Counted from the stretch's first letter, positions 2,482 to 33,467 are shown. The stretch is DNA of 33,771 nucleotides from Candidatus Woesearchaeota archaeon (GCA_964388875.1 CAYMCA010000005.1:1-33771); one strand, 5' to 3'. Numbers and translations are program-made. The notes: generated by a model from the sequence alone, not told the origin.

Positions 2482-3120
2482 ATGGTTATAAAGGCAGAAA
2501 AAGCAGTTATCTCCCTGATTATTGCAAGCATGTTTTTTGCAAATGCGCATCCTGCTGAAAGGAGCAAGCTGAAAAAAGAGGCAGTTAATACAATCTCCGA
2601 GATTATTGTCAGGGAATCAAAATCTGCTGAAAAAAACCTCAATTTGCAATATTACAAGGTAGATGATGAGCTTAAAGGCATAAAGAAAGGTGTAAGGATG
2701 TCTTACCAAAAATCACTTCTTGAAGGAATAGTTGAAATTATAACACTTGGTAAGCTTCTCACGCCGAGATCATACAGGGAATTTTCCAGCCTGCGGGATG
2801 AAATAAGCTCGAAGCAGAACACGATTCTGGACAAGATTTGGAGGAATGACACAGAGCATATAAACGAGATAATATTAAAGGAATACATAAGGCAAAATGT
2901 TCCAAAATGCGAATTAACAGGCATGTACAATAAGATGTTTGACCTGGCTTCAGAAGCGTCAAAAAACGAGAGTGATAAGAACATCATAAAGGAAAAAACA
3001 ATCAAGGAAAAGGAAAAAGCAGTATTTCTTCTGCACGCCTATGCCAAGGGACATTTGTACATTGAGGAGATATACAGCCAAAGCTCTTCCAGCGCCAATA
3101 TGCAGCAGGCATCAAAATAA
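2482..3120 (+). CDS. Hypothetical protein with a hydrophobic N-terminus and a Lys/Glu-rich remainder
   Basis: This is the only long ORF in the 755-bp gap between prs and lhr. It has an ATG start and I recognise no family. Confidence 0.45.
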   Translation: MVIKAEKAVISLIIASMFFANAHPAERSKLKKEAVNTISEIIVRESKSAEKNLNLQYYKVDDELKGIKKGVRMSYQKSLLEGIVEIITLGKLLTPRSYREFSSLRDEISSKQNTILDKIWRNDTEHINEIILKEYIRQNVPKCELTGMYNKMFDLASEASKNESDKNIIKEKTIKEKEKAVFLLHAYAKGHLYIEEIYSQSSSSANMQQASK

Positions 3121-3125
3121 TTCTC

Positions 3126-5717
3126 TCAATCTCCGCTCTTGCCTATCATCTCAAGATGCAGCTTATGCATTCTTTTTAGGAATTCTATCTTGTCCTCTAT
3201 CCTTATCAGGTCAGAATACCCTTGTATAATCAGGTTAAGGTCAAACGGTCTTGGCAGCTTTGTGTGCGCCTCTTTTATTTTTATTCTCCCTTCATTTATC
3301 CATTCAACAATAAGCTTCGCATTCTTGATATCCATTAAGTCCTCAATAACCTCTCTTCTTGCCTCTTTTAAAATAGGAAAATTCTTATCCAGCTTTTTCA
3401 CGCTTCCAAGCAGAAACCCGGATTTCATTTGCTGCTTGCCTACAGATTTTGTCCTGCCCTTGTAGCTCCTTAAAATCATCAGGCCGCGGGTAGCGCAATG
3501 CCTGAACCTCCTTTTCAGAACCTCTGTTTTTTCTATTGCCTCCTTCAGAATATCAACAAGATTCTTTGAATTTAGCATTTTTAGCGCCTTGACTGCCTGA
3601 ATATTCTCTCCTGCAAGGAAAAACCCATTATCGCTTATCCCTATCTCAATATCTCTCCCGTGAAGCCTCGCAGCAACAAAAGCTATTGCCCTTGACAGGG
3701 CGTCATTCACCCTTCTGCCAAAAAGCGAGTGAAAGATGACATAATCCTTCTCTCCCCTGTAATGCTCCACAATGAGCTTTTTCTCGTGCGGAATCTCCAA
3801 AAACCTGAATTGCTCATAAAAATAATTGTATACAGCATTTGCGCAATGCTCATCACAGTAAAGAAACTCCATTATAAATTTTTTAACATTCTCTTTCCCC
3901 TCTTTTTTGAGTTTTTCCTCCATCAAAAGCCTGAATCTTTGTATTGCCAGCGCAGAGCCAAAGCTTAATGGCAGCATCTCTGAAAACCATAAGGGAATTG
4001 TAGGCGATTTATGAACAGACGCATTGACATAGGCATTCATTCCCTTAGTGTACCTGAATTCATACCTGTGCCCGCCAAGAACAAAGACATCGCCAGGTTT
4101 CAGCCTTTCAAGGAATGCCTCATCTATAACCCCCACTCTTTCATCCTTTCTTTCTCCGCCGGATATGACAATGCTGACAAAGCTTTCTTCAGGGATAGTG
4201 CCTATGTTTGTCATGTAAATCACCCTTGCCAGCATCCCTCTCTTGCCTATCTGCCCTGTTTTCTTGTCATGCCATATCTTTGCATAAACATCCCTTGCCT
4301 CAAGGGCATACTCCCCCGCAAGGTAGTCAATAACAGAGAAAAAATCCTCCCTTGTTAATTCCTTATAGCAATAGCTTCTTTTTATAACAGCAAAAAGCTC
4401 TTCAGCATTCCATACCTGCTGTATTGCCATGCCATAAACCTGCTGGCTTAGGACATCAAGGCAGTTTTTTGGAATCTGCACTCTGTCTATAATGCCTTCC
4501 CTTGCGTTCTTTGCCAGAACACAGCATTCAATTAAATCATCCCTGTCCAAAACAATAAATCTTCCCTTTGCAGTTTCGTGCAGCCTGTGTCCTGCTCTTC
4601 CTATCCTCTGCAGCGCCCTTGCAACGCTTTTAGGAGAGCCGAGCAGAATCACAAGGCCTATGTACCCAATGTCAATTCCCAGCTCCAGGCTTGTGCTCGT
4701 GACAACAACCTTTAATTTTCCCTGCCTCAGCCTCTCTTCAATATCAAACCTATGCGCCTTGCTTAAGCTGCTGTGGTGCGCCCCTATATTCTCAAGGTAT
4801 TTTGAGGGGAACATCTCCTTTAAATGATGAATAACCCTTTCTGTCGCACTTCTTGTATTTGTGAATATCAGTGTTGTCTTGTGATTTTCAATAAGCCTGT
4901 CTATTAGTCTATAAAGGTCAGAGTGCAGGCTTCTCGCATCAACATCTATGATGTCTTCAGATGGAGTTAAAACCTCAATATCCATGCTCTTTGTGAACTG
5001 TACATCTGCAATCTCACACCCCCTGCCTTCGCCAACCAGAAACCCCGCAATATCCTCAAGAGGCGCAATTGTTGCTGAAAGCCCAATCCTTACAGGCTCA
5101 ATTTTGCTTATGTGGCAAAGAATCTCCAGGCTTAAGCTGAGGTGCACCCCCCTTTTGTTGGCAAGAGCATGAATCTCATCCACTATGCAGAACTCAACAG
5201 CACTCAATTTTTCTATAAACCTCTTGGAAATTAGCACAATTGCAAGGCTTTCAGGGGTTGTTATAAATATATGCGGCGTATTTTTCAGCATCTTTTGTTT
5301 TTCACTGGCAGTTGTATCCCCTGTCCTTACTCCAACCCTTATCTTCTGCATGTCTACCCCGTTTCTTTTAGCTATCTTCTCAATCTCCTCAAGCGGCATA
5401 ACAAGATTAACATAAATGTCAGAGCCAAGAGCCTTAAGCGGAGAGCAGTACACACAATAAACCTTATTTTCCAGCTCATTTTTGCATGCCAGGCTGACAA
5501 GATAATTTAATATGCTCAAAAATGCAGTCAGTGTCTTTGTCCCGCCGGTTGGGGCAGATATAAGTATATTCTTCCTTTCATGTATAGGCATAACGCCATA
5601 AAGCTGAGGCAGGCTCAACTCCTTAAACCTTGAGAAAAACCATTCCTTAACAAGAGGATGCATGGTGTTCTTTATCTCGTTCGCTTCCCTTTCCTTCGCA
5701 ATGCTAATCCCTGCCAT
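3126..5717 (-). CDS. lhr: Lhr-type (Lhr-core) ATP-dependent DEAD/DEAH-box helicase
   Basis: SF2 helicase motifs are present: SAPTGGTKT (Walker A), VDEIH, LSATI, TSTSLELGIDIG and QRIGRAGH. A long C-terminal DEAD-associated region follows. The track start 5732 is TTG, so I use ATG 5717 (MAGISIAKE...). Confidence 0.9.
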   Translation of the reverse strand: MAGISIAKEREANEIKNTMHPLVKEWFFSRFKELSLPQLYGVMPIHERKNILISAPTGGTKTLTAFLSILNYLVSLACKNELENKVYCVYCSPLKALGSDIYVNLVMPLEEIEKIAKRNGVDMQKIRVGVRTGDTTASEKQKMLKNTPHIFITTPESLAIVLISKRFIEKLSAVEFCIVDEIHALANKRGVHLSLSLEILCHISKIEPVRIGLSATIAPLEDIAGFLVGEGRGCEIADVQFTKSMDIEVLTPSEDIIDVDARSLHSDLYRLIDRLIENHKTTLIFTNTRSATERVIHHLKEMFPSKYLENIGAHHSSLSKAHRFDIEERLRQGKLKVVVTSTSLELGIDIGYIGLVILLGSPKSVARALQRIGRAGHRLHETAKGRFIVLDRDDLIECCVLAKNAREGIIDRVQIPKNCLDVLSQQVYGMAIQQVWNAEELFAVIKRSYCYKELTREDFFSVIDYLAGEYALEARDVYAKIWHDKKTGQIGKRGMLARVIYMTNIGTIPEESFVSIVISGGERKDERVGVIDEAFLERLKPGDVFVLGGHRYEFRYTKGMNAYVNASVHKSPTIPLWFSEMLPLSFGSALAIQRFRLLMEEKLKKEGKENVKKFIMEFLYCDEHCANAVYNYFYEQFRFLEIPHEKKLIVEHYRGEKDYVIFHSLFGRRVNDALSRAIAFVAARLHGRDIEIGISDNGFFLAGENIQAVKALKMLNSKNLVDILKEAIEKTEVLKRRFRHCATRGLMILRSYKGRTKSVGKQQMKSGFLLGSVKKLDKNFPILKEARREVIEDLMDIKNAKLIVEWINEGRIKIKEAHTKLPRPFDLNLIIQGYSDLIRIEDKIEFLKRMHKLHLEMIGKSGD

Positions 5718-14485: not shown

Positions 14486-14748
14486 CCGAAATTAAAACCA
14501 CATTCTTTAGACTTCAAAAATGCTCATTGAATTTTGGCATTTTTGATAGTGCTCAAGAACCCGAGCATGCTATATGTTTTAGCGCAGGGTTCTTGACAAT
14601 GGGGTCGTAGCTTACTGCTTTTAATTTCGGAGCATCCTAAAAACAAGTGCCCTTGCAAACCATACCTTTTAAGGCTTCAAAGTTCCTTGAACTTTGATAG
14701 TCATCAAAAATCATAGATTTTTGAGATGTGGTGGCACATTGTTTTTTT
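14486..14748. repeat. Modular hairpin element family A, copy 1 (contains module C copy 2)
   Basis: H1: CCGAAATTAAAA (14486-97) / TTTTAATTTCGG (14619-30). The linker is AGCATCCT. H2: AAAAACAAGTGCC (14639-51) / GGCACATTGTTTTT (14733-46). Inner hairpins lie at 14678-96 and 14704-24. The same plan occurs at 26396-26518. Confidence 0.7.
14514..14599. repeat. Hairpin module C, copy 2 (nested in the H1 loop of A1)
   Basis: Inverted repeat TCAAAAATGC (14514-23) / GCATTTTTGA (14537-46). It is followed by TAGTGCTCAAGA, with stem AAGAACCC (14555-62) / GGGTTCTT (14587-94), then GACAAT. Confidence 0.6.
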
Positions 14749-14781
14749 GATACCTACCTATAAAATCCCATATTTAAAAAC

Positions 14782-22641: not shown

Positions 22642-22672
22642 TTTATCTTTTAGATTTTCTTGATTTTTAAAA

Positions 22673-23110
22673 TTATACCCTTCTGCCCCTTCTTCCGCCC
22701 TTTGCCTTTGGCCCGCCCCTTGGCACATTTGTCACATCGCTAATGCTTATTATCTTTATGCCCTCTCTTGACAGGCTTCTTATAGCTGCATGAGCGCCAG
22801 GCCCAGGCGCAATGCTTCCTGTCTGCGCCTTTACCTTGACATACAGCGAAGTCATGCCAATCTCCTTTGCCTTTTCAGCTGCCCTTTTTGCAACAAACAT
22901 TGCCACTGTTGGATTGGCTTTTAGCCTGTCCTGCTTTGTAATCATTCCGCCGGAAAATCTTGAGATAGTATTGCCTGCCATGTCTGTTATGTGCACGATT
23001 GTGTTGTTGAATGAGGTATATATGTGCACAATGCCCTCATGTTCAACAGCATCCCTTTTGCTTTCTCTTATGGATTCTTCCTTCTGCATTAGTTCTTTAT
23101 TCTCTGCCAT
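22673..23110 (-). CDS. rps11: 30S ribosomal protein S11 (uS11)
   Basis: GIVHIYTSFNNTIVHITD and GPGAHAAIRSLSREGIKIISISDVTNVPRGGPKAKGGRRGRRV are typical of uS11. The likely start is ATG 23110 (MAENKE...), preceded by GGAGTGG. Confidence 0.95.
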   Translation of the reverse strand: MAENKELMQKEESIRESKRDAVEHEGIVHIYTSFNNTIVHITDMAGNTISRFSGGMITKQDRLKANPTVAMFVAKRAAEKAKEIGMTSLYVKVKAQTGSIAPGPGAHAAIRSLSREGIKIISISDVTNVPRGGPKAKGGRRGRRV

Positions 23111-23615
23111 TTTCCACTCCTGCGCTTCCGGCTTTATCAGCATTCTCGCTCTTTTCCTTTACTTTTTTGTTTTTTGTTTTTAAGCTTATCTCTTTTTCCT
23201 CATCCAGGCTGACATTGTATGATGGAATATTAACAGCATTCTCCCCTATCAGGACATGCTTGTGCACTATCAGCTGCCTTGCTGAGCTTGGAGACTTGGC
23301 TATATTCTTTCTTACAAGCATTGTCTGCAGCCTCCTGTCAAGTATGCTCTCCTTTCCCAATGCAAGAACATCCTGCAGTTTCTCAGCCTTTAATCCAAGT
23401 TTTTTAAGCTTGCCAATGAATCTCTCCTGCTCTTCAGGGCTTTTGGTTATCAATGCCTTTGCCTGGTCTCTTATCTTGCTTATCCTCGCATCTGCCTTCC
23501 AGACCTCTTTTTTGTTTTTCAGCCCGTATGCCTTCAGAATGCGGTTTTCTTCCTCAACCCTTGCCATTTCATGCAGCTTTCTAGGCCTTGAATATCCCTT
23601 TCTCTTCCTTAACAT
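23097..23615 (-). CDS. rps4: 30S ribosomal protein S4 (uS4)
   Basis: It has an archaeal S4 N-terminal region and an S4 RNA-binding domain (LDRRLQTMLVRKNIAKSPSSARQLIVHKHVLI). It sits in the S13-S4-S11 order. Confidence 0.95.
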   Translation of the reverse strand: MLRKRKGYSRPRKLHEMARVEEENRILKAYGLKNKKEVWKADARISKIRDQAKALITKSPEEQERFIGKLKKLGLKAEKLQDVLALGKESILDRRLQTMLVRKNIAKSPSSARQLIVHKHVLIGENAVNIPSYNVSLDEEKEISLKTKNKKVKEKSENADKAGSAGVENGRE

Positions 23616-23616
23616 C

Positions 23617-24126
23617 TTATTTCTTTGCCTCCTGGATCTTCTTTAGCTTTTTCATCTTCATAATTCCGCCTGTCCTGTTCTTCCTGAAATGGCTTCTTGT
23701 TCTCTGCCCCCTTACAGGCTGCCCTGCAGAATGCCTCAGCCCTTTGTAGCTCTTGATTTTTTTCAGCCTCTTTATGTCAAACTCCTTGGTTAAGTCCAGG
23801 TCAGCGCCTATAACATGCCTTTCAGTGCCAGCCTCAATGTCCTTTCTCCTGTTAAGCATGAAGCTAGGCAGCTTTGGATTTTTTATAAAATCACTTATTC
23901 TCTGAATCTCACCCTCGCTTAGTGCGCCAATCTTCTTGTCTTTTTCAATTTTCAGCGTATAGCATACAGCATTTGACAGCCCCCATGAAATGCCCTTTAT
24001 CCTTGTTAATCCTGAGTAAATGCCCATGTTTCCTGGTATGTCTGTCGAGAGCATTCTTACAATTGCCCTGATTCCCTTTCTTTCTGTTGTCTCTTGCTTT
24101 TCTGTGCTCTTATGCTCTTCTTCCAT
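23617..24126 (-). CDS. rps13: 30S ribosomal protein S13 (uS13)
   Basis: L.TDIPGN..I...LT.IKGIS and GLRHSAGQPVRGQRTRS are typical of uS13. Confidence 0.95.
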   Translation of the reverse strand: MEEEHKSTEKQETTERKGIRAIVRMLSTDIPGNMGIYSGLTRIKGISWGLSNAVCYTLKIEKDKKIGALSEGEIQRISDFIKNPKLPSFMLNRRKDIEAGTERHVIGADLDLTKEFDIKRLKKIKSYKGLRHSAGQPVRGQRTRSHFRKNRTGGIMKMKKLKKIQEAKK

Positions 24127-24128
24127 TT

Positions 24129-24668
24129 TTATTCTACAAACAAATTATGCCTTTCCATTTCTGTCAGCTCCTGAATAATCCTTTTTTCAACTGCCTTTTT
24201 GGCATCAGGCAGGTGAGGCAGCCTTTTCTTTATGTCCTCAAACGAAGAAAATTCTTTTTCCTTTCTTTCGCCAAGCACTTCATTCATGTGCTTTTTGCCA
24301 AATCCCGGAAGCAGTTCAAGCTGGTGAAGCCTTGTATTTATCGCATCTGCCTTGTTGAAAAAATCAACAAACTTCTTTTCATCGTCCTTGACGACTTTTT
24401 CAACAAATTCCCCTATCTGGGATTTTGCAGTCTCTGTAAGCTTTTCGCGGGGCAGCCTGCCAAAAATGTAATATATCTTGTCTCTCTTACCCTCGCCTAT
24501 ATAAACCTTCTCCTTTAGCTGCAAAGAAATTCCCCTTCTCGGAACAAGCTGCAAAAGCGATAAATTTTTCTCCCCTATAGCCTGCGCTATCGGCATCATC
24601 TTCCCCTCTAATGGATAACCGTTTGGCAGGTAATCCAGGATAATTGCGTATTCTTCTTTCTCTCCCAT
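24129..24668 (-). CDS. DUF655-family protein (archaeal HhH-containing RNA/DNA-binding protein found next to rpoF)
   Basis: EEYAIILDYLPNGYP, VDFFNKADAINTRLHQLELLPGFGKKHMNEVLGER and FSSFEDIKKRL match the DUF655 pattern. It also occupies the conserved L21e-RpoF-DUF655 position. Confidence 0.8.
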   Translation of the reverse strand: MGEKEEYAIILDYLPNGYPLEGKMMPIAQAIGEKNLSLLQLVPRRGISLQLKEKVYIGEGKRDKIYYIFGRLPREKLTETAKSQIGEFVEKVVKDDEKKFVDFFNKADAINTRLHQLELLPGFGKKHMNEVLGERKEKEFSSFEDIKKRLPHLPDAKKAVEKRIIQELTEMERHNLFVE

Positions 24669-24673
24669 TTTCC

Positions 24674-24979
24674 TTACCTGTATTTCTTAACAATCTCAAT
24701 AATTTTAGCAGTCTCATTTTCATCCAAGCCCGTATCAATGAATATCTTGTTTATGTCAGACGCGTCCTCTGGCAGAAAATCAATGATTTTTGCAATATTC
24801 TCGGGCTTTAGCTTTATAATGCCTGTCCCTTCAAGCTCTTTCCGCAGCTCTGACGCTTCCTTTGCATCAAGCTTTGTAAACTTCTTTAAAAAGGCCTTCA
24901 GCTCCTTCTTTTCATCTTCAACGCCCTTTATGCTCTCCCTGACTTCTGCCAGGCTCAAAGGTGTTGTATTTTTTATCAT
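24674..24979 (-). CDS. rpoF: DNA-directed RNA polymerase subunit F (Rpo4, Rpb4 homolog)
   Basis: 101 aa. KLKPENIAKIIDFLPEDASDINKIF....ENETAKIIEIVKKYR matches the archaeal RpoF pattern, and it lies immediately downstream of L21e. Confidence 0.7.
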   Translation of the reverse strand: MIKNTTPLSLAEVRESIKGVEDEKKELKAFLKKFTKLDAKEASELRKELEGTGIIKLKPENIAKIIDFLPEDASDINKIFIDTGLDENETAKIIEIVKKYR

Positions 24980-25013
24980 TTTGTTTGTTTTCTGTTTCGG
25001 CTTTTGCCTGTTT

Positions 25014-25271
25014 TTACTCAGATTTTATTTTTTTTAAATGTATTGGCTCGATTATAAAGCTTTTCTTCTGGTTGAAGTCCATTATGCTGACTATGTATGA
25101 ATTTCCCCTCTCGCCTGTTATTATGCCTGTCCTGCCCTGAATCCTTCTCGGGAATTTTGCTTTAATGGAGGTTTCTCTCTTTACAGCCACGCTTTCACCC
25201 TCTTTAAATTTCTGAAAGTACTGGCTTAACCTTACCTTGCCCTTTTCTCTCATGCTTTTCTTCTTTAACAT
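25014..25271 (-). CDS. rpl21e: 50S ribosomal protein L21e
   Basis: F..GE.V.....S..K..P.R..G.TG.I.G.RG..Y.V is the SH3-like L21e pattern. The ORF is 85 aa. Confidence 0.9.
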   Translation of the reverse strand: MLKKKSMREKGKVRLSQYFQKFKEGESVAVKRETSIKAKFPRRIQGRTGIITGERGNSYIVSIMDFNQKKSFIIEPIHLKKIKSE

Positions 25272-25274
25272 TTT

Positions 25275-25610
25275 TTATCTCCTTTCCTGCCTTGCAATTC
25301 TTGTTTTATGCCCCATTTCATTCGTTATCTTCTCAAGGCAGCCTGCAACCGCCTTGAACATATTGTAATGGCTTTCCTTTGCATTGAAAGCCCCTATCCT
25401 GGTTTTTATGCTGCATTTAATCTCATGCAGGAATGTCTTGCCATGAACCGACTTCTTCATGCTCATCCTCACATACTCTATCTCGCATGCTTTTTCTGCC
25501 TTTTCAAGCGCTTTGGATATGATGCCAGACAGCATCTCCTTTTCCACATCCTCAAGCTGAAAGCCGCTTAACTCAACATTTTTCAGCCCGCCTCTCTTTT
25601 CCTCGTCCAA
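25275..25610 (-). CDS. Hypothetical protein with an HPF/RaiA (S30AE, ribosome hibernation factor)-like sequence pattern
   Basis: The first codon is TTG (25610), with AGGAG about 13 nt upstream. The predicted pattern is beta-alpha-beta-beta-beta-alpha: NVELSGFQLED / EKEMLSGIISKALEKAEKA / IEYVRMSMKK / LHEIKCSIKT / AFNAKESH / NMFKAVAGCLEKITNEMGHK. By eye it aligns with E. coli HPF. It ends 4 nt before L21e. Confidence 0.5.
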   Translation of the reverse strand: MDEEKRGGLKNVELSGFQLEDVEKEMLSGIISKALEKAEKACEIEYVRMSMKKSVHGKTFLHEIKCSIKTRIGAFNAKESHYNMFKAVAGCLEKITNEMGHKTRIARQERR

Positions 25611-25728
25611 TTTTCTATTAAACTCCTGCTTTCTTATGGCTCTGTATTTTATGATTTAACATCTTTAAAAAGCTTTTCTAAACGCTATAAATGCCTTTTT
25701 GGAAAGCCTTTAAAATCCCCCTATTTTA

Positions 25729-25941
25729 TCAGAATCCTCTATTTTTCTTTATTTCCTTGCTAGTCTCTATATCGCCCACAGAGCCCTGGTTTAGGTTTCC
25801 TGTCTCTCTCGCCTGTGTCATATTATTCACAATGGTGTCAAACATCTTCTTGCCCCACACCCCGTGCCCGCATCTCTCGCAAAAATCAATAACGCTGTTA
25901 TCATCAATTTCTGCCTTGCAGTACATGCATCTCTTTGCCAT
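25729..25941 (-). CDS. Small zinc-ribbon protein (70 aa)
   Basis: CMYC...x13...CERC forms two CxxC pairs. The ATG start has a TTTAAAAAT TATA-like box about 25 nt upstream, which looks leaderless. Confidence 0.6.
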   Translation of the reverse strand: MAKRCMYCKAEIDDNSVIDFCERCGHGVWGKKMFDTIVNNMTQARETGNLNQGSVGDIETSKEIKKNRGF

Positions 25942-26352
25942 TTTTATTTAATCTTTTTGATATTTTTAAATATATGTGTTTTGAGGGGGGCTTTGCACAT
26001 CTCCTTAATTATTTTTCCTTTACTAACAAACTTTAAAATGTGCCATGATTTATAACTTTTATGAAAATAAAAGAGGGGAAGTATTAGCAGAAGGAGGGGT
26101 ACAAATTGTACATACCCTTCCACTGGAAGCAGAAGTAATAAAAGGTGAGATTAAATTAAAGAAAAAACAAATAAAATAATTTTATTAATCAATATTCAAA
26201 AATTTCTTGCAAATCATTATTAAGATTGGCTTGATTTTATTTTTGTAATTATTATATTTTTCATTATCATAACTTGCAATTGCTAGGTTTTGGATTTTTT
26301 CCTTGCTCTCAAAAAATTCATTGCTATCTAACAGATTTAATTTTTATGTTTT

Positions 26353-26381
26353 AAAAACTGCTACTTTGTGGCAGTTTTTTT
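26353..26381. terminator. A-run / hairpin / T-run (AAAAACTGCTAC-TTT-GTGGCAGTTTTTTT)
   Basis: An 8-bp stem with one G-U is flanked by A5 and T7 in the long non-coding region 25942-26773. Confidence 0.4.
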
Positions 26382-26395
26382 AATATGATTTAATG

Positions 26396-26518
26396 TCAGA
26401 AATTAACTGCATCATTTATGATGCGGACGCAACATTTCCACTTTAATTTCTGAGCATCCTAAAAACAAGGGGCTTTACAAACCACACACTTTAGTGTGTG
26501 GTGCCCCCTTGTTTTTTT
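26396..26518. repeat. Modular hairpin element family A, copy 2
   Basis: H1: TCAGAAATTAA (26396-406) / TTAATTTCTGA (26443-53), enclosing hairpin GCATCAT-TT-ATGATGC (26409-24). The linker is AGCATCCT. H2: AAAAACAAGGGGC (26461-73) / GCCCCCTTGTTTTT (26503-16), enclosing ACCACACAC-TTTA-GTGTGTGGT. Confidence 0.7.
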
Positions 26519-26536
26519 GATGAGTAAATCAATATT

Positions 26537-26665
26537 ATGAACATAAAACCGGGAATAGCCAATCAGCCATAAAAACTCAAAATCCAATCCCTCCGAGATT
26601 AAGACAGGGGGCAATATGCTTAAGAGAAGCTTAAATGGGGGAAGTTTTTGGTTGAGGGGATGGGG
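26537..26665 (+). repeat. Family B intergenic repeat, copy 1 (5' extension + core + tail)
   Basis: ATGAACATAAAACCGGGAATAGCCAATCAGCCATAAAAACTCAAAATCCAATCCCTCCGAGATTAAGACAGGGGGCAATATGCTTAAGAGAAGCTTAAATGGGGGAAGTTTTTGGTTGAGGGGATGGGG. Near-identical copies lie at 27974 and 29541. Confidence 0.85.
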
Positions 26666-26740
26666 AGCTTTAAAAGTACTCAAATTAAAAGTTTACGCTA
26701 CCAAAGTCTAATAAACCATAATACTATACGATACCATAGT

Positions 26741-26752
26741 AAAGTTTATAAA
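26741..26752 (+). promoter_or_regulatory. Putative BRE/TATA (AAAGTTTATAAA) for a leaderless ATPase transcript
   Basis: The TATA-like TTTATAAA at 26745-52 ends 22 nt before ATG 26774. There is no SD between them. Confidence 0.4.
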
Positions 26753-26773
26753 TCCCATTTTACTGTATAATCT

Positions 26774-27937
26774 ATGGAAATAAACTTAGAAGCAGAGCTA
26801 TACAAACAAAATCCCTGGTGGGAAAGAAAATTTGAAGATGAAAGCATTCCTAGAGAGGCATATCTTAAAGAGATAGATAAAAACTTGAGTCATAAGGAAA
26901 TAATATTCTTGATAGGTCTTAGAAGAATTGGAAAAACAACTATAATGAAGCAGTTTATTAAAAGACTGCTTAAAAAAGTCAGTCCAGAAAATATTTTTTT
27001 TATAAATCTTGATAGCTTTACATTATCTAACCTGTCAATTCACGGATTGATTGAAGAATACAGAAAAATCCATAAAAAATCTTCCAAAGGCTTATTTTAT
27101 CTTTTCCTGGACGAAGTAACTTCGAGAGAAAATTTCGAGCAAGAGCTAAAGAGTCTGTATGATAATGAAAACATTAAAATTATATGCTCTTCCTCAATTG
27201 CAACCATGATGAGAGACAAGAAAGCATCATTAACAGGGAGAACAAGAACAATTGAGGTTATGCCTTTAACATTCCAAGAATTCTTAATTTTTAAAAAGGC
27301 AAAAATTGGCAAGGCAGACAGGTCCGCTTTGGAAGGTTATTTTAGAGATTATATGAGAGTTGGCGGAATTCCCTATTATGTCCTAACAGAAGATAAAGAA
27401 TACTTAAATGAGCTTGTTCAGGGGATAATTTACAAGGACATTATTGCATATCATAAAATAACTGGTGAAAAAGCCATAAAAGACATGTTTGTTCTTTTAT
27501 GCAGGAGAGTTGGAAAACCGACTAGTTACAATAAATTAGCCCAAATTTTAAAGATATCTGTTGATAGTGTTAAAAGATATGTAGGATATTTTGAAAAAGC
27601 TTATTTGTTTTATACGCTAGATAAGTATGCCAAATCTTATAATGAAAAAGTTACTTCTCCTAAAAAAGTTTATATTGGAGATATTGGAATTAAAAATCTT
27701 ATTACTGAAAATAAAGATTTGGGGGCAAGTTATGAAAACCTTGTCTTTTTGAAGATAAAAAATCTAAATCCGGCTTATTATCTCCAGGATGCGGCAGAAA
27801 TAGATTTTATTACAAAAGATATGCTAATTGAAGCAAAGTTTAACCGGGAAATGGATGAAAAACAAAAAGAGTTATTTAAAAAAATTAAGATTAAGAAAAA
27901 AATTATAGCTAATGGCATTGATTTCTTTATGAATTAA
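26774..27937 (+). CDS. AAA+ ATPase of the COG1373 type (AAA_14 + DUF4143)
   Basis: The N-terminal NPWWE, Walker A GLRRIGKTT and Walker B FLDEV are present. The C-terminal ...YENLVFLKI....EIDFI... region is restriction-endonuclease-like (DUF4143). Confidence 0.85.
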   Translation: MEINLEAELYKQNPWWERKFEDESIPREAYLKEIDKNLSHKEIIFLIGLRRIGKTTIMKQFIKRLLKKVSPENIFFINLDSFTLSNLSIHGLIEEYRKIHKKSSKGLFYLFLDEVTSRENFEQELKSLYDNENIKIICSSSIATMMRDKKASLTGRTRTIEVMPLTFQEFLIFKKAKIGKADRSALEGYFRDYMRVGGIPYYVLTEDKEYLNELVQGIIYKDIIAYHKITGEKAIKDMFVLLCRRVGKPTSYNKLAQILKISVDSVKRYVGYFEKAYLFYTLDKYAKSYNEKVTSPKKVYIGDIGIKNLITENKDLGASYENLVFLKIKNLNPAYYLQDAAEIDFITKDMLIEAKFNREMDEKQKELFKKIKIKKKIIANGIDFFMN

Positions 27938-27973
27938 GCTTGACAGCACTGCAGCAGATGCATGCCCGAATTC

Positions 27974-28079
27974 ATGAACATAAAACCGGGAATAACCAAT
28001 CAGCCATAAAAACACAAAATCCAATCCCTCCGAAATCAAGGCAGGGGCAATATCTTTAAGAGAAGTCTAAATGGGGGAA
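27974..28079 (+). repeat. Family B intergenic repeat, copy 2 (5' extension + core)
   Basis: ATGAACATAAAACCGGGAATAACCAATCAGCCATAAAAACACAAAATCCAATCCCTCCGAAATCAAGGCAGGGGCAATATCTTTAAGAGAAGTCTAAATGGGGGAA. Confidence 0.85.
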
Positions 28080-28093
28080 TTTTTGAGATTTAT

Positions 28094-28873
28094 TTAGACT
28101 TTTTTAGCTTTTGCTTTCTTTTCAGAATCTTTGATTTCTTTAAGCTTAAAGTATTCTGCAAGAAAAGAAATGACTTGTTGAAAGCTTATTTCTTCTCGAG
28201 TTATTGCTGCTAAATCTTTCTTCCAAATGCGAAATACCTTGTTTGTATTTTTAAAAACTGCTTTTATATCAAATTTTTTCCCTGTTGATTCTAATTTTCT
28301 TTTTATAATCTCTAAATTAATTGAGTTTCCAGATTTTATCAGATTGTATAAATCCAGATAGTCTCTTGGCTTGTATCTTTCAATTGTTGCTCTCAGCTTC
28401 TCAGCAAACATCTCTTCCTTGTTCAAGCAGGATATATAAAATGAAGGGAATTTATCTTTGTAAAAATGGTCAACAAGGTACTTTTCCGGCTTGAGAAGTG
28501 GCTTTGCTCTTGCAGTTAAGTCAATAAATATTCTGCCTGGCTCGTGAAATAGCCTGTAATGGGCTGCCAATCTTAAAAATCTCTCAACATCTTTTTCTGG
28601 GCTAAGCTTATCAAAAATAGTTCCATTTAGTTTTTCTTTTATCTCAGCTTTAACTTCTTCAATATCCCTTGTTAATGTAAAATCCAAGTCTTCTGACAAG
28701 CGGGTATGATTAAGAAATATTTTATTTATTGCAGTTCCTCCCTTAAATAAAATTCCTTTCACATCCTTCAAAAGAAACAACAATTGGGTGACCAAATAAT
28801 CTTTTTCAATTATCAGCATTCCAAACTTCTCTCTGCCCGAGATTATTCTTAACTCATCTAATGTTATATCCAT
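28094..28873 (-). CDS. AbiEii/AbiGii-family nucleotidyltransferase toxin
   Basis: FKGGTAINKIFL..TRLSEDLDF is the family signature GGTAL...R.SxDxDF. The ORF is 259 aa. Confidence 0.8.
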   Translation of the reverse strand: MDITLDELRIISGREKFGMLIIEKDYLVTQLLFLLKDVKGILFKGGTAINKIFLNHTRLSEDLDFTLTRDIEEVKAEIKEKLNGTIFDKLSPEKDVERFLRLAAHYRLFHEPGRIFIDLTARAKPLLKPEKYLVDHFYKDKFPSFYISCLNKEEMFAEKLRATIERYKPRDYLDLYNLIKSGNSINLEIIKRKLESTGKKFDIKAVFKNTNKVFRIWKKDLAAITREEISFQQVISFLAEYFKLKEIKDSEKKAKAKKV

Positions 28874-29439
28874 TTTTTGCTTTCCTCTTTTGTGGCTATG
28901 ATAAACTTATGGCCATATACCTCTCTTTCTATTGATTTTGGAATGTCCTGTTTTTTATGCTTTTTAAAATAAAATACTGAATTAAAAATCTGGATCTTTT
29001 TATGCTTTTTTGTATTCCAGACTTCATAAACAAGGGGAACCTGGTCAATCAGCTTCCAATAGCTTGCAGCTGCTTTTCCTACAATTGAATAATTTTTTGA
29101 ATTCATGATTTCATCAATTAGTATAAACGGGTGCTCTGACCAGTTTCCGCTTACAGCTTTTATAGGAACAAGAAAGTACTTGCTTTTATTAAGCTTGATA
29201 ATCCTGGCTTTTCTCTTAAGCCTGTAGATATAAACTTTTCTTTCATTTGCATTTTTAAAAAAAGGCATTGCATCGTTAGTTGTGAAAAAGTATTTTCCCT
29301 TCAGCTCCAGGCTGGAAATCAGAGCGAGCTCTTTTTCAGAAAGCCCTTTTCTGATAGTTTTTTCCTTTTTCAGGGTTTTGGATATTTTTTGCGCTTTCAT
29401 CTTTTCATTCTTTTTATTCCTCCCATAGTTTCTCCACAT
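28864..29439 (-). CDS. AbiEi-like antitoxin (wHTH plus C-terminal domain)
   Basis: It overlaps the toxin start by 10 nt. ELALISSLELKGKYFFTTNDAMPFF....VYIYRLKRKARIIKLNKSKYFLVP is wHTH-like. The start could be ATG 29439 or 29400. Confidence 0.65.
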   Translation of the reverse strand: MWRNYGRNKKNEKMKAQKISKTLKKEKTIRKGLSEKELALISSLELKGKYFFTTNDAMPFFKNANERKVYIYRLKRKARIIKLNKSKYFLVPIKAVSGNWSEHPFILIDEIMNSKNYSIVGKAAASYWKLIDQVPLVYEVWNTKKHKKIQIFNSVFYFKKHKKQDIPKSIEREVYGHKFIIATKEESKKWI

Positions 29440-29540
29440 TAATTTTTCTCCAATAGGTTAATAATATGTTAACTTTAAGGAAAAAGCACTATTTAAGCTT
29501 TTTGGTTCGGGCGCATCCTGCAAAACAGCCCGAGCAGCTT

Positions 29541-29630
29541 TCAAAATCCAATCCCTCCGAAATCAAGACAGGGGGTAATATCTTTAAGAGAAGCCTAAAT
29601 GGGGGGAAGGTTTTGGTTGAGGGGGGAGGA
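29541..29630 (+). repeat. Family B intergenic repeat, copy 3 (core + tail), overlapping the 3' end of the HsdS-like ORF
   Basis: TCAAAATCCAATCCCTCCGAAATCAAGACAGGGGGTAATATCTTTAAGAGAAGCCTAAATGGGGGGAAGGTTTTGGTTGAGGGGGGAGG. It is preceded by hairpin TCGGGC (29507-12) / GCCCGA (29528-33), whose loop holds a GCATCCT..AAAACA box like the family A linker. Confidence 0.85.
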
Positions 29631-30105
29631 AGGAGGACGAGAGGTAGGGAAGAGGGATTTTTATTGAATTAAGTTGTTTAGAGGTAATCGCTTGAAATGT
29701 GCTTCCAACTCCTAAATTGGCAATAACCTTCTTATTTGAATTTAAAAAATAATAAAGATAAAATAAATTTACTTTGTTGGTAGGTTTAATTGAAGTTAAC
29801 CCTCTACCAATACAACATTTAATATTGCAAATATTAACATCTCCTACCGGAGCTCTAATAGAGATTAATATTGAATTTGAGTCTGCAAATTTTGAAGGTT
29901 TTGTTGTCCATTTTTTAATAATAGGATATTTATCAGTAAATTCAGCCTTCCCTTGAAAGAAAGGAGTTCCTTCTTCATTTTCATTATAAGAATTGCCTGG
30001 CGGAGATTGCCCCATTATAATTTCAAAATATTCTCCATTTCCCAATTCAACTTCTTGCCAGCCTTCAGGAAGTTTATTCTGTTTTTGTGTTATTTGTTGT
30101 TTCAT
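29584..30105 (-). CDS. Type I restriction HsdS-like single target-recognition domain, orphan and probably 3'-truncated
   Basis: LPEGWQEVELG..., SILISIRAPVGDVNI, IGRGLTSIKP, LFYLYYFL, GSTFQAITSKQLNSIKIPLP is a complete HsdS TRD. The conserved helical spacer expected after IPLP is replaced by YLSSSFLPPQPKPSPHLGFS, which is encoded by repeat B3. ATG 30105 lies 1 nt after the helicase stop (TAA-c-ATG), and the track start 30114 is TTG. Confidence 0.7.
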   Translation of the reverse strand: MKQQITQKQNKLPEGWQEVELGNGEYFEIIMGQSPPGNSYNENEEGTPFFQGKAEFTDKYPIIKKWTTKPSKFADSNSILISIRAPVGDVNICNIKCCIGRGLTSIKPTNKVNLFYLYYFLNSNKKVIANLGVGSTFQAITSKQLNSIKIPLPYLSSSFLPPQPKPSPHLGFS

Positions 30106-30106
30106 G

Positions 30107-31999
30107 TTATTCAATTATCTCGATAAAATGAGAAGGTTCGAGATTTCTCCATTCATGGTTAATAGAGTGTGTTATTGTTAAGAAATCTTTTGCTCTTGAA
30201 ACAGCAACATAAAACAGCCTTAACTCATCATCTTTCTTAACCTTGCTTAGTTTATCAAAATAAAAAGGTAGTATCTTTTCATTACATCCCGCTAAAAACA
30301 CATATTTCCATTCTAATCCTTTAGAGCTATGAATCGTGCTTAATATCACTTTTTCTTTATCTTTTTCTCTTTTTTCCATTTCAATTAAGCTATCTAAAAA
30401 AGCTTTTATTCCTTCAAGATCATAGTCATAACCTTTAAATAATTCTTTTAAAGTTTCTATATTCTCTTCTTTATCTTCTATTTTTTCAGGCTCATACGCA
30501 TATTTTTTTGAAATTAAATAGTGATAATCAAAGAATTTTAAAAAAGATTCAATTGGATTTTTATTGCTTCGTTTTATGAGCTCTTTAAGTTTAATAAGTT
30601 TTTTACTTATCTCATAATTAAACTTTAATTGTTCAGATTTATCTAAAGAATCTACAATTGAACACTTGTTCTTATCGGTAATTTCTTTAACTTTGTTTAT
30701 TTTTGCCTTGCCAATACCCCCAATTAAACTTGCGATTCTTTCAAATTCTATTGTAGTATTTGGGTTTATTTTAAGTCTTAGAAACGCAATAATATCTCTA
30801 ATTTCTTCTCTGTCAAGAAAACCTCTTGCTCTTGATAAATGGCATGGAATTTTATTTCTTCTAAATTTTCTTTCAATTTGTTTACCTAAATTATTTGTTC
30901 TAAACAAAACAGCAATATCTTCTACCTTTGTTTTATTCTTTAATAATCCCTTAATCTCTGAAACTAAAAAATCAGTTTCTTCATCAAAAGAATAAAACTC
31001 TTTTATTTGTATATCGCTTCCTTTATCTCTGGTGCAGTATAGCTTTTTATCAATTTTAAAGGCAAGTGATTTTATTATTTTATTTACAGCACTAATTATC
31101 TTTTCTGTTGACCTATAATTATCTTTCAGAGTAATTTTTTTATGTTTTTTATTAAACTTAAATATAAGGTCATTTGAGGATCCTCTCCAGGTATAAATAT
31201 TCTGGCAATCATCTCCGATAAGACAGAGATTATTGTTTTCTAATAAATCAAGTATTTTCATTTGAACAACACTTAGATCTTGTGCCTCATCAACCATTAT
31301 TACTTTAAATTTATCTGAATAATGCTTTCTTACATCTTCATTTTTACTTAGAAGATTATATGCCAATAGGAGAATGTCATCAAAATCAAGGGTATTAGAA
31401 TCCTTTAAAATTTTTTGATATTCTTTATATGCTGCTATAGAAAGTTTCTTTATTTTAGAACTTACTGAAACAACTTCCCCTTCTATCTCTTCTATAATCT
31501 CTCTTTGAGACTCATTCAAATCTAAATTGTCACTCAAAGATTCATGGCTTACCCCCGCATTTTTGAATCTGTTTATTCTGTCAATTAAATAAACAATATC
31601 TCCTGATTTTGGCTTTATACCTTTCTTCTCTAAAATTTTCCTGATTATTTTTTTCTTATCACTCTCTTCAGTTAGTAGCGTAAAATTTGGATTTAATCCT
31701 GCTTCATCATGATTTTCCCTTAAAATTCTAAGAAATAAAGCATGCATGGTCCCTATATAACCTGGCATCTTTTTTGTCCTTTTGCTTATCTTTTCTTTCA
31801 TATCTTTAGCAGCTTTATTAGTAAAAGTGGTCATCATTATTTCACTAGGGCTAAAACCATGTTTTTCGACAAGATTTATATACCTTTCAACAATAGCTGT
31901 AGTTTTTCCTGTTCCAGCACTCGCCAATATAAGCAAGTTTCCATTTAATGTGTTTACTGCATCAATTTGCTCTTTATTTAATTTTAGTGAATTTATCAT
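30107..31999 (-). CDS. UvrD/PcrA/Rep-like SF1 DNA helicase (630 aa)
   Basis: ASAGTGKTT (Walker A), TFTNKAAKDM, MVDEAQDLS, GDDCQNIYTWRGS, TIHSSKGLEWKYVFL and LFYVAVSRAKDFL are all present. Confidence 0.9.
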   Translation of the reverse strand: MINSLKLNKEQIDAVNTLNGNLLILASAGTGKTTAIVERYINLVEKHGFSPSEIMMTTFTNKAAKDMKEKISKRTKKMPGYIGTMHALFLRILRENHDEAGLNPNFTLLTEESDKKKIIRKILEKKGIKPKSGDIVYLIDRINRFKNAGVSHESLSDNLDLNESQREIIEEIEGEVVSVSSKIKKLSIAAYKEYQKILKDSNTLDFDDILLLAYNLLSKNEDVRKHYSDKFKVIMVDEAQDLSVVQMKILDLLENNNLCLIGDDCQNIYTWRGSSNDLIFKFNKKHKKITLKDNYRSTEKIISAVNKIIKSLAFKIDKKLYCTRDKGSDIQIKEFYSFDEETDFLVSEIKGLLKNKTKVEDIAVLFRTNNLGKQIERKFRRNKIPCHLSRARGFLDREEIRDIIAFLRLKINPNTTIEFERIASLIGGIGKAKINKVKEITDKNKCSIVDSLDKSEQLKFNYEISKKLIKLKELIKRSNKNPIESFLKFFDYHYLISKKYAYEPEKIEDKEENIETLKELFKGYDYDLEGIKAFLDSLIEMEKREKDKEKVILSTIHSSKGLEWKYVFLAGCNEKILPFYFDKLSKVKKDDELRLFYVAVSRAKDFLTITHSINHEWRNLEPSHFIEIIE

Positions 32000-32003
32000 A
32001 ATT

Positions 32004-33467
32004 TTACTTCACCTCAACAATAAATTTCCCCTCTTTAATTGATATAAATATCCCTTCATCTTTAAGATGATTTTTTAGATGTGATGAAGTTTTGAAAGAA
32101 TCTTGGTTTTCCTTAATATACTTCTTAATAGCATCTTTATTATAAACCTTTTTCAAAAATTTAAATAATATCACTATATCTGTCCAGTGTCCTCTAAGTA
32201 GTTCTTTTTTATTGTTAATAAATTTTAGTGTTTTTTGTTTGTCTATTTGTGATAATCTTTCTAATAAGGAGACATGTTCCTCAATTTTCTTCCAATCAAA
32301 ATTATCTTTTATAAATTCATAGTCATTTATTTGAGAAGATAAGTATGTAAGCTGTTTTTTGTTGTACTCTGTATTTTCATCTTGCAATAAAAGCTTTTTT
32401 GTAATTTCTTCATTTCTAAAATTATTTTTTATAAATAAATCTACAATATCTTTTAGCCTGTCAACTATATCCTGATTTTCCTCCACAGCAGTTTCAAACT
32501 GCTCAAAATTATTCACAATAGTATCAAAATCTTTCTCATATACTCCTACCATAAACAAAAGATTCTTATTTTTTAGAGATTCTGCAAGACCTTTAATAAA
32601 AGAAATCTTTTCTTCAATAAAATTGTATAAGATATGTTTGTTTGAATTATCTACATTCTTTTTTACTTCCAAAAGAGGGGGATTTTTTAGATTCAGAAGA
32701 AATTTAAGATATTCTTCTTTAGGAAAAGCTTTTTTAATCTTATCTTTAAATTCTTTAAAGGACTCTGCTTCATTAATTATCTCATCTCTGAGGGGCTCTC
32801 TTCTTATTATTTCATTTACTTTATTCTCTTGCAATGATTTTTTAACAATTAACTCTATTAGTTTTTCATTTAAATCAAATAATCCCGCATCATATTCTTC
32901 GTCTTCCCAATGTTCATAGTTCTCATTGTATTCATCACTTTCACAGATTTTGTCTGTAATTTCATCGTGATGAGTATCAATATAATCATGCAATTCTAAC
33001 AATTGTTCAAAAGAAAGCACAGGCAAAAGAGCTTCTGCTTCTTTAATTTTATCCGAAGAAATATTCTTTTTGAATGATTTTATAAAATCTTTTTTATTTG
33101 TGTTTTTTCTTATATTATGCTTAATTATCCAATCAGGATTATCCTGCAATTTTGATAATATCATTTCTTTAAGCTCATTACTGCTCATTTTATTGAGGCT
33201 TTTAATAAAATCTTCAGTATCCCAAAACTTACCCTTTTCATAAATTAAATAAAGAGCAACTGCATGTTTGCAGTTAGTTCCATATGGGCAGGAACAATCT
33301 CCATCAAGAGAATCTAAGTCTACCTCTGTTTTGTAAGTTGTAGAGCCTTCAACTTTTCCAAAAATAAAATTATTAATTTTTATACAATATTTAACAGAGT
33401 CTAAATATCCCTTTCCTCTTTCAATTACCTTTTCAGAATATTTATCTTCAATATCCATTTTTCCCAT
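32004..33467 (-). CDS. SWIM zinc-finger protein with a long acidic helical C-terminal region (487 aa)
   Basis: The N-terminal pattern RGKGYL...V......FGKVEGSTTYKTEV......CSCPYGTNCKHAVALYL matches the SWIM CxCxnCxH signature. The stop lies 4 nt before the helicase ATG. Confidence 0.8.
   Translation of the reverse strand: MGKMDIEDKYSEKVIERGKGYLDSVKYCIKINNFIFGKVEGSTTYKTEVDLDSLDGDCSCPYGTNCKHAVALYLIYEKGKFWDTEDFIKSLNKMSSNELKEMILSKLQDNPDWIIKHNIRKNTNKKDFIKSFKKNISSDKIKEAEALLPVLSFEQLLELHDYIDTHHDEITDKICESDEYNENYEHWEDEEYDAGLFDLNEKLIELIVKKSLQENKVNEIIRREPLRDEIINEAESFKEFKDKIKKAFPKEEYLKFLLNLKNPPLLEVKKNVDNSNKHILYNFIEEKISFIKGLAESLKNKNLLFMVGVYEKDFDTIVNNFEQFETAVEENQDIVDRLKDIVDLFIKNNFRNEEITKKLLLQDENTEYNKKQLTYLSSQINDYEFIKDNFDWKKIEEHVSLLERLSQIDKQKTLKFINNKKELLRGHWTDIVILFKFLKKVYNKDAIKKYIKENQDSFKTSSHLKNHLKDEGIFISIKEGKFIVEVK

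Follow-up and report, generated by a model that had tools for sequence, protein, structure and literature searches.

A direct repeat at the borders of strain-variable defence and toxin-antitoxin cassettes is a probable att-like junction in a Nanoarchaeia (DPANN) lineage

The stretch of DNA analysed here, referred to as the window, is a contig of 33,771 nucleotides (nt) from Candidatus Woesearchaeota archaeon (GCA_964388875.1 CAYMCA010000005.1:1-33771). The host is a groundwater DPANN archaeon, the best protein matches of which are labelled Nanoarchaeia, Nanoarchaeota or Woesearchaeota. The markers on the contig include an archaeal RpoD with a 4Fe-4S insert, DUF655 and the ribosomal proteins S13, S4 and S11, and CCA is not encoded in its tRNA-Leu. 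DPANN archaea have tiny genomes, depend on hosts and carry highly variable defence islands, and we know of no account of how these islands turn over. From about 26 kb to the contig end the GC content is 0.26-0.35, and this island adjoins a cluster of ribosomal-protein and RNA-polymerase genes. According to Pfam and PADLOC, the island genes encode an AAA_14/DUF4143 ATPase, AbiEi, AbiEii, an HsdS fragment with a single target-recognition domain, a GajB-like UvrD helicase and a SWIM-finger protein. The subject of this study is a short direct repeat, named repeat B, that separates these genes. The order repeat, ATPase, repeat, AbiE pair, repeat had been proposed in the first-pass annotation of the sequence, and the Pfam and PADLOC assignments show that it is correct.

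Repeat B occurs exactly three times in the window, always on the plus strand, as determined by a repeat search and a 31-nt degenerate core pattern. This pattern was matched by 0 of 100 shuffled sequences, which confirmed the three same-strand copies of about 67 nt described before. B1 (26537-26659, nhmmer E 9e-19) consists of an extension (26537-26576), a core (26577-26643) and the tail GTTTTTGGTTGAGGGG (26644-26659), and it lies between another repeated element, family A, and the ATPase promoter. B2 (27974-28087) consists of an extension (27974-28013), a core with a 1-nt deletion in its G-run (28014-28079) and the shortened tail TTTTTGAG (28080-28087). B2 occupies the space in which the ATPase and AbiEii genes converge, and the AbiEii stop codon is 6 nt past its end. 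B3 (29541-29626) has only the core (29541-29608) and the tail GGTTTTGGTTGAGGGGGG (29609-29626) and is located between the abiE promoter and the truncated hsdS. The spacing is 1437 nt from B1 to B2 and 1527 nt from B2 to B3, which encloses one gene and one toxin-antitoxin pair, respectively.

The identity over the 67-nt core, counted by hand from the variable columns, was 86.6% for B1/B2, about 89% for B1/B3 and 91% for B2/B3, and every copy has a 1-nt indel in the G-run. With the tail columns counted, the pairwise identity was 85-86%, so the earlier figure of about 90% is slightly generous. The 5' extension of 40 nt is found only in B1 and B2, where 38 of its 40 positions are identical, and the 11-codon mini-open reading frame (mini-ORF) reported for it is present in both. 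The G-rich tail attributed to B1 and B3 was also borne out, as G(G)TTTT(T)GGTTGAGGGG. Outside of the extension and tail blocks, the homology of the flanks was not above that of shuffled controls, and impressions of likeness gained by eye were dropped. Each copy is covered, along with the flanks unique to it, by independent Logan contigs of several runs, which indicates that the copies are not an assembly artefact.

The borders of the modules were then compared with the positions of repeat B. The abiE module lies on the minus strand (28094-29511), with AbiEi at 28864-29439, AbiEii at 28094-28873 and the promoter reaching to about 29511. The closest AbiEii homologues, with 89, 85 and 79% identity, are located in four other genomic contexts (contigs L017-L022, L045 and L023). 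In all four, the DNA homology covers only 28107/28109 to 29505/29511, which is exactly the interval between B2 and B3; it starts at the promoter, falls slightly short of the AbiEii stop codon and ends within 23-30 nt of the B2 and B3 cores. The ATPase cargo on the plus strand (26721-27937; gene 26774-27937, PADLOC candidate system PDC-S01) has its own promoter with a TFB-recognition element (BRE) and TATA box. Its DNA homology to other Nanoarchaeota loci starts at this promoter (26721) and ends at the stop codon. These homology limits therefore place repeat B precisely between independently mobile modules. On the other side of B3, the HsdS fragment (29584-30114, minus strand) keeps its homology through the conserved IKIPLP motif and loses it immediately afterwards, at the very end of the B3 tail, and the HsdS frame continues through the tail to a stop codon within the B3 core. 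Profiles of repeat B had no match in the neighbourhood of the nearest homologues of AbiEii or the ATPase, and none in a relative further removed.

A sister strain was reached via a DUF655 protein with 98% identity and is represented by ten contigs (L033-L042), which are stored in the reversed direction. Over 22664-25981, including the adjacent ribosomal genes, its DNA is 93.8% identical to the window. Past the same Zn-ribbon gene, the sister island differs and contains small ORFs, a PIN pair, a gene for a protein of 104 amino acids, a Polbeta-nucleotidyltransferase/HEPN pair, and then RadC or others. An nhmmer search with the B profile revealed B-like copies, whose strand with respect to the core genes is the same as in the window, with E values of 5e-23 to 8e-16 for full or near-full copies and weaker ones where contig ends cut the copies. 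In L034, a full copy (S-a, 1902-1973) begins 20 nt after the 104-amino-acid gene, and a second copy (S-b, 527-587) comprises the right half only, from AATAT to the G-run. These two copies flank the Polbeta-nucleotidyltransferase/HEPN toxin-antitoxin pair.

The contigs L035-L037 are 99.4-99.8% identical to L034 elsewhere. L036 and L037 part from L034 where S-a has its right end, at L034 positions 1906 and 1911, respectively, and L033 and L035 part from it at a second GTTTTGAGAGGGGTGGA motif, which lies at the far end of the cassette. S-a thus has at least three different right-hand neighbours, and a fourth follows S-b. Several sister contigs (L036-L039) end inside S-a or no more than about 460 nt beyond it, which is what a variable repeat would lead one to expect. 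When five contigs were aligned over 7357 nt, 12 of the 45 variable columns fell in the 50-nt right half of S-a, where about 0.3 would be expected, and the left half was invariant. By eye, the right-half variants form a mosaic of about three haplotypes. The idea that the copies are recombination sites of a cassette-type platform is supported by these copies at cassette borders, by the breakpoints at the right end and by the polymorphism hotspot in the right half, and the proposed comparison of strains showed that related strains carry different cassettes at repeat B. It had also been considered that the repeat might be confined to this locus as a product of local duplication. For this strain the confinement is real, but the repeat is no duplication artefact, because it is conserved at island junctions in a second lineage.

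Further copies were searched for in several collections. Four metagenome runs, screened at 80% or more likeness to B3, contained only the contexts of B1, B2 and B3, and two further runs of the same study, screened at 85%, added no context. An exact 19-mer of the core gave chance matches only (6 in GTDB species genomes and 10 in JGI metagenome contigs), none of which extended past the seed. Scans of IMG/VR, one of which used the family A pattern, gave nothing beyond chance matches, and plasmid and phage collections had no match to repeat B in blastn.

At almost all of the junctions, a G-rich motif, TTTT(N0-11)G(A)GAG(A)GGGG, marks the end of the shared sequence to within a few nt. When the whole contig was scored with G4Hunter, the window over the B3 tail ranked first and that over the B1 tail third. 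Among the sister junctions, the top or second G4Hunter window was found in three of the four loci scored, and the junctions of L036 and L037 were not among the top windows. Moreover, 5 of the 10 plus-strand GAGGGG hexamers of the 33.8-kb window lie within 25983-29619, at or near junctions. They include a stand-alone TTTTGAGGGGGG motif (25979-25990) at the left edge of the island (25979-26094, plus strand), where the core-genome homology with the sister strain ends at about 25981-26005, and the point (26073) at which a remnant of a sister-strain-type radC promoter (26012-26075) breaks off.

Repeat B was assessed as a functional class, that is, by direct repeats at the borders of inserts and by different inserts in related strains, and both are found here. 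It stands at module borders, keeps its position and orientation in a second lineage, has variable right neighbours and is polymorphic in its right half. These results indicate that repeat B is probably a conserved att-like junction of a strain-variable array of defence and toxin-antitoxin cassettes in this Nanoarchaeia (DPANN) lineage. Recombination at repeat B and the machinery behind it are what we infer from these sequence patterns, and a site-specific and a homology-driven mechanism appear about equally likely. A site-specific recombinase could act on a short core of the GAG(A)GGGG type, XerA being a possible candidate; equally, short-homology recombination between the B copies could account for the exchanges. 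Cassettes would enter, leave or swap by a crossover in the right half (AATAT...TAAAT...TTTT..GAG(A)GGGG), near its G-rich end. A circular or incoming cassette with the same right half would recombine with a resident B in Campbell fashion, and this would leave one B on either side, both pointing the same way irrespective of how the cargo is oriented. Because such a crossover would duplicate the site around the insert, direct copies despite differing cargo orientation, mosaic arms and the half-copy S-b would all be expected. In terms of the minus strand, B1 (tail-core-extension) would resemble an unoccupied site, and B3 (tail-core-y) and B2 (x-core-extension) would be the hybrid sites around abiE.

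Several points weigh against this interpretation. Sharp breakpoints at the end of B are also expected at the edge of any shared ancestral sequence and do not prove a fixed crossover. Members of the repeat family were detected in just two closely related lineages, and the copies are few. No recombinase gene is present in the island of either strain, and the only one on the contig, an XerA equivalog, is 9 kb away. Tyrosine recombinases normally bind an inverted-repeat core; 11-bp inverted arms (three mismatches or fewer, spacer of 4-10 bp) were found in none of the full B copies, and the one match in the half-copy is at chance level, as shuffles gave 0.5 per sequence. Neither an excised circle nor an empty site nor a B-to-B joint was found in the Logan contigs of the six runs in which this strain occurs, which is a weak negative because contigs drop rare variants and the depth was only 3-10x. 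Since the difference in identity between extension and core is not significant, the mosaicism rests on the presence or absence of the arms. At the left edge, the homology to the sister strain continues for about 20 nt past the GAGGGG, so this case is weaker than the others.

The lack of a nearby recombinase and of excision products, the few copies and the lineage restriction would also fit inert relics of a local segmental duplication or a hitch-hiking spacer, with the turnover caused by ordinary recombination elsewhere. We consider this unlikely, since a compact DPANN genome keeps repeat B in two lineages, in the same orientation and at the borders of unrelated cargo, since polymorphism in the right half is about 40-fold in excess, and since several alternative neighbours begin at the same nucleotide window and the half-copy shares the right half only. 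Chance landings of a miniature inverted-repeat transposable element (MITE) or another non-autonomous transposon at three places in the island would be in line with a short, non-coding, repeated sequence that has a genuinely mobile small element, family A, beside B1. This MITE-like origin, which had been among the first explanations, is highly improbable: no terminal inverted repeats were found at B, no dispersed copies exist in the 33.8-kb contig, the depth over B equals that of the genome, only three contexts occur in the runs screened, and the copies end at different points and are mosaic. Target-site duplications were looked for as suggested and were absent, the flanks sharing nothing beyond extension and tail. 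An integron origin, with B as attC and the locus as a cluster of attC sites lacking integron integrase (CALIN) like the integrons reported in archaea of the Nanoarchaeota, would explain same-orientation sites spaced by one-gene or toxin-antitoxin cassettes and sites that are more similar within a genome. It is equally hard to accept, as the attC boxes RYYYAAC/GTTRRRY are absent from B1-B3 on either strand and no R''..R' pair occurs in the whole window (regular-expression search); the GTT of the B1 and B3 tails is missing from the sister copies. Neither a single-stranded DNA fold beyond that of shuffles (z -0.13 to +0.92 for both strands) nor a conserved pairing supports an attC hairpin. The sole tyrosine recombinase of the contig (16991-17869) scored 244 bits as XerA_Arch equivalog (cut-off 220) and 210 bits against the integron integrase model TIGR02249 (cut-off 265). 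Diversity-generating retroelements are common in DPANN archaea, and direct repeats of about 90% identity with a hypervariable right half might recall their template and variable repeats. This possibility is practically negligible, as the mismatches are not adenine-specific on either strand (by eye), no reverse transcriptase is found among the annotated ORFs of the contig, and B is intergenic instead of lying at the 3' end of a target gene.

The first-pass annotation had also seen a hint of RNA in a CCCTC...GGGGG pairing and had listed a repeated small RNA or terminator among the candidates. Repeat B would then act as an RNA or transcription signal, such as a small RNA, a conserved 3' untranslated region, or a bidirectional archaeal terminator or insulator of each cassette. 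A T4-T7 run near the right end of every copy on the plus strand, which is the first oligo-T past the ATPase stop codon, and the minus-strand TTTTGNGTTTTT that B1 and B2 provide downstream of abiEii speak for such a role. We regard it as improbable because stable or conserved structure is lacking. RNA folding of both strands was no better than that of shuffles (z -1.3 to +1.7), and the consensus fold with the sister copies, the recommended covariation check, reached about -3 kcal/mol on either strand with 0 compensatory pairs and no covariation. The proposed pairing is broken in the sister copies by CCCTCC to CCATCC and CAGGGGG to CAAGGGG, which are not compensated, and Rfam gave no match at the gathering threshold and none of relevance at E up to 10. 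In addition, no conserved promoter precedes the copies, their orientation relative to the neighbouring genes is inconsistent, and a T-run alone would suffice for a terminator, leaving 70 conserved nt unneeded. A search for RNA-seq runs that contain the locus found none. The probability that repeat B codes for a small protein is lower still. The candidates were a plus-strand peptide, SNPSEI(K/R)T.GN..., and a hydrophobic minus-strand peptide, (M/L)P.F(K/R)LLL.ILP.VLIS(E/D)GL, resembling type I toxins; both frames are open across the core and have ATG starts in the sister copies, and 6 of 10 variable columns fall in one codon phase. This bias is not significant (P ~0.23 after correction), however, B2 is frameshifted, B1 and B3 have no start at the homologous position, and the polymorphisms of the sister copies are mostly non-synonymous in the plus frame (codons read by eye). 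A 68-amino-acid plus-strand ORF over B3 had one marginal match (E 2.4e-4) among 1.84 billion representatives, and no Pfam or NCBIfam model matched any frame.

Three further candidates were set aside. Repeat B as a conserved region of hsdS was dropped, as no frame has a Pfam match. The likeness of TCAAAATCCAATCCCTCCG to the 3' end of a tRNA was dropped, as it has no T-stem and no Rfam tRNA match and is missing from the sister copies. A resemblance to origin-recognition boxes (G-string) was also considered; no orc1/cdc6 gene lies nearby, and the copies are direct.

As an att-like junction, repeat B can be compared with known recombination sites. Archaeal integrons are now known in Nanoarchaeota (PMC9668308, Ghaly et al. 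2022), and toxin-antitoxin and restriction genes are typical cargo of archaeal and bacterial cassettes (PMC9668308). Like attC arrays, the locus has same-orientation sites of about 60-130 nt around single-gene or toxin-antitoxin cassettes, free orientation of the toxin-antitoxin cassettes, sites that are about 85-90% similar per genome, defence, toxin-antitoxin and restriction cargo, and strain-variable cassettes. Highly similar attC repeats of this kind are familiar as the Vibrio cholerae repeats (VCRs) of sedentary Vibrio chromosomal integrons, and a CALIN is a cluster of attC sites that is without IntI by definition. Unlike attC, repeat B has no R''/R' boxes, imperfect palindrome or single-strand hairpin, and no IntI was recognised on the contig; it is asymmetric, with one G-rich end as the variable side, and may be shortened to the right half alone or to about 12 nt with the GAG(A)GGGG motif. 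In pdif modules of Acinetobacter plasmids and in integrative mobile elements exploiting Xer (IMEX), accessory or toxin-antitoxin genes lie between sites for a housekeeping Xer encoded elsewhere. The small modules between sites and XerA as the only recombinase on the contig are alike, whereas the orientation of pdif sites alternates and every B copy is direct. The imperfect palindrome with an 11-6-11 layout that dif-type sites have (PMC2958812) is missing from repeat B. Since the defining features of both families were tested and are absent, repeat B falls outside the attC and dif families. In tandemly accreted integrative islands, the attL/attR/attB logic of tyrosine or serine integrases applies. 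Repeat B shares with such hybrid sites the direct repeats around inserts, the mosaic arms (both in B1, one each in B2 and B3) and a gene, hsdS, truncated at an apparent secondary site; it differs in that its inserts are about 1.4 kb without an integrase, no tRNA or tmRNA is targeted, and there is no inverted-repeat core.

Other direct repeats were observed in further Nanoarchaeota contigs. L029 carries a GC-rich 99-nt repeat with 93% identity and a partial third copy (1273-1318, 2508-2606 and 3082-3180). Two of the copies each follow a small gene, starting 7-10 nt past its stop codon; these genes are consecutive, and a family A copy and an ATPase homologue come directly after. This repeat has GCCTAAC and a 7-bp terminal inverted repeat, but its fold is not attC-like, and a Y1 transposase gene lies at L029:43-423. 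In other lineages, the direct repeat that flanks the abiE module is a different one, about 50 nt long (GGAGAGATAAAACTGAGGAGAAAATGA...; L017:8210-10849, L045:152-204 and 1642-1691), and it extends over both the 3' end of the gene upstream and the beginning of a small ORF. In L017, Shedu-like, GIY-YIG and AbiE genes are separated by four such copies. An XerA-like integrase is encoded 1.3-2.4 kb from abiE in L017, L019, L020 and L023. The repeats of L029 and of L017/L045 are lineage-specific, stand between consecutive genes and are not attC-like. A second junction-associated direct repeat is also present in the sister strain, TTG(A)GAGG.GG(T)TGGAAGAAG.TTTGCTTTTCT..GGAATTTTGAA (L034:4373-4417 and 620-662).

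The repeats of L029 and L017/L045 hint that junctions like B may be widespread among these archaea, and no description of elements of this type was found in a literature search. A bolder proposal is that repeat B and the analogous repeats of L029 and L017/L045 are undescribed DPANN cassette-capture recombination sites with an integron-like function. This is conceivable but doubtful. Such a capture system would use asymmetric, double-stranded sites without hairpins, with a G-rich crossover end (GAG(A)GGGG, prone to form G-quadruplexes), and XerA or another recombinase acting in trans. Integrons in Archaea have been reported recently and were recognised by the canonical structure of attC (PMC9668308). 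The present locus combines an integron-like organisation of its cassettes with apparent swapping at strain level, at a repeat that has neither the boxes nor the hairpin of attC, and if a dedicated mechanism exists, attC-based surveys would miss a class of gene-capture platforms. For recombination assays, repeat B also offers a concrete site with a G-run at its end and a length of about 50 nt, and it could serve as a marker of defence-gene exchange in groundwater archaea.

Family A, the neighbour of B1, is a structured element of about 140-210 nt and no part of repeat B. Its copies lie at 14546-14755 and 26385-26528 in the window (both plus strand), at L029:3198-3348 and at L033:9470-9700. The copy at 26385-26528, named A2, ends close to B1 (15 nt upstream), and in L029, as in the window, family A lies a short distance upstream of the ATPase gene. 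The 3' end forms a long stem, AAAAACAAGGGGC...GCCCCCTTGTTTTT, followed by a T-run, with compensatory changes in 5 of 28 predicted pairs; there is no Rfam match. The Logan depth over 26423-26563 was 85-260x, with single positions up to about 550x, compared with 3-10x in the rest of the locus. Because the depth is so raised, family A is taken to be common to many community members. In the sister strain, a copy with 95% identity lies in an insertion of about 219 nt directly past the rpS11 stop codon (after TATAA); the window does not have this insertion and carries its family A copy at 14.6 kb instead. A family A-like fragment, AGCGCAGGGTTCTTGACAT, also lies near L034:4180-4330. The family appears to be mobile and could be a non-autonomous element of the IS200/IS605 type, similar to palindrome-associated transposable elements (PATE-like), or a mobile small-RNA gene.

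At the left edge, about 400 nt after the Zn-ribbon gene (25982-26380) contain no ORF. The radC-promoter remnant is 85% identical to L033:1456-1519, and between the two points of homology, 4.65 kb with other genes is present in the sister strain. At the other side of the array (29584-33467, minus strand), the HsdS ORF overlaps the end of the GajB-like UvrD helicase gene by 8 nt, and the latter follows the gene of the SWIM-finger protein (487 amino acids), which has no PADLOC match. HsdM, HsdR and GajA are not present with these genes in this stretch, which may represent a leftover or else a helicase/SWIM defence pair not described so far. Look-ups of the exact ATPase and SWIM proteins returned no further contigs.

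The ATPase family is very abundant and unusually conserved in DPANN archaea, with more than 1,250 database proteins at E below 1e-30. Among the 120 matches listed, the identity is about 70-76%, with one at 86%. L029 shares the conserved BRE/TATA promoter of the ATPase gene, TATACGAT..CAT.GTAAAGTTTATAAA. The densest cluster of palindromic hexamers of the contig (27936-27977), six in 38 nt (AAGCTT, CTGCAG, ATGCAT, GCATGC, GAATTC and TCATGA), is situated between the stop codon of the ATPase gene and the extension of B2. Although it resembles a polylinker, this cluster is natural, since environmental contigs from several runs contain it.

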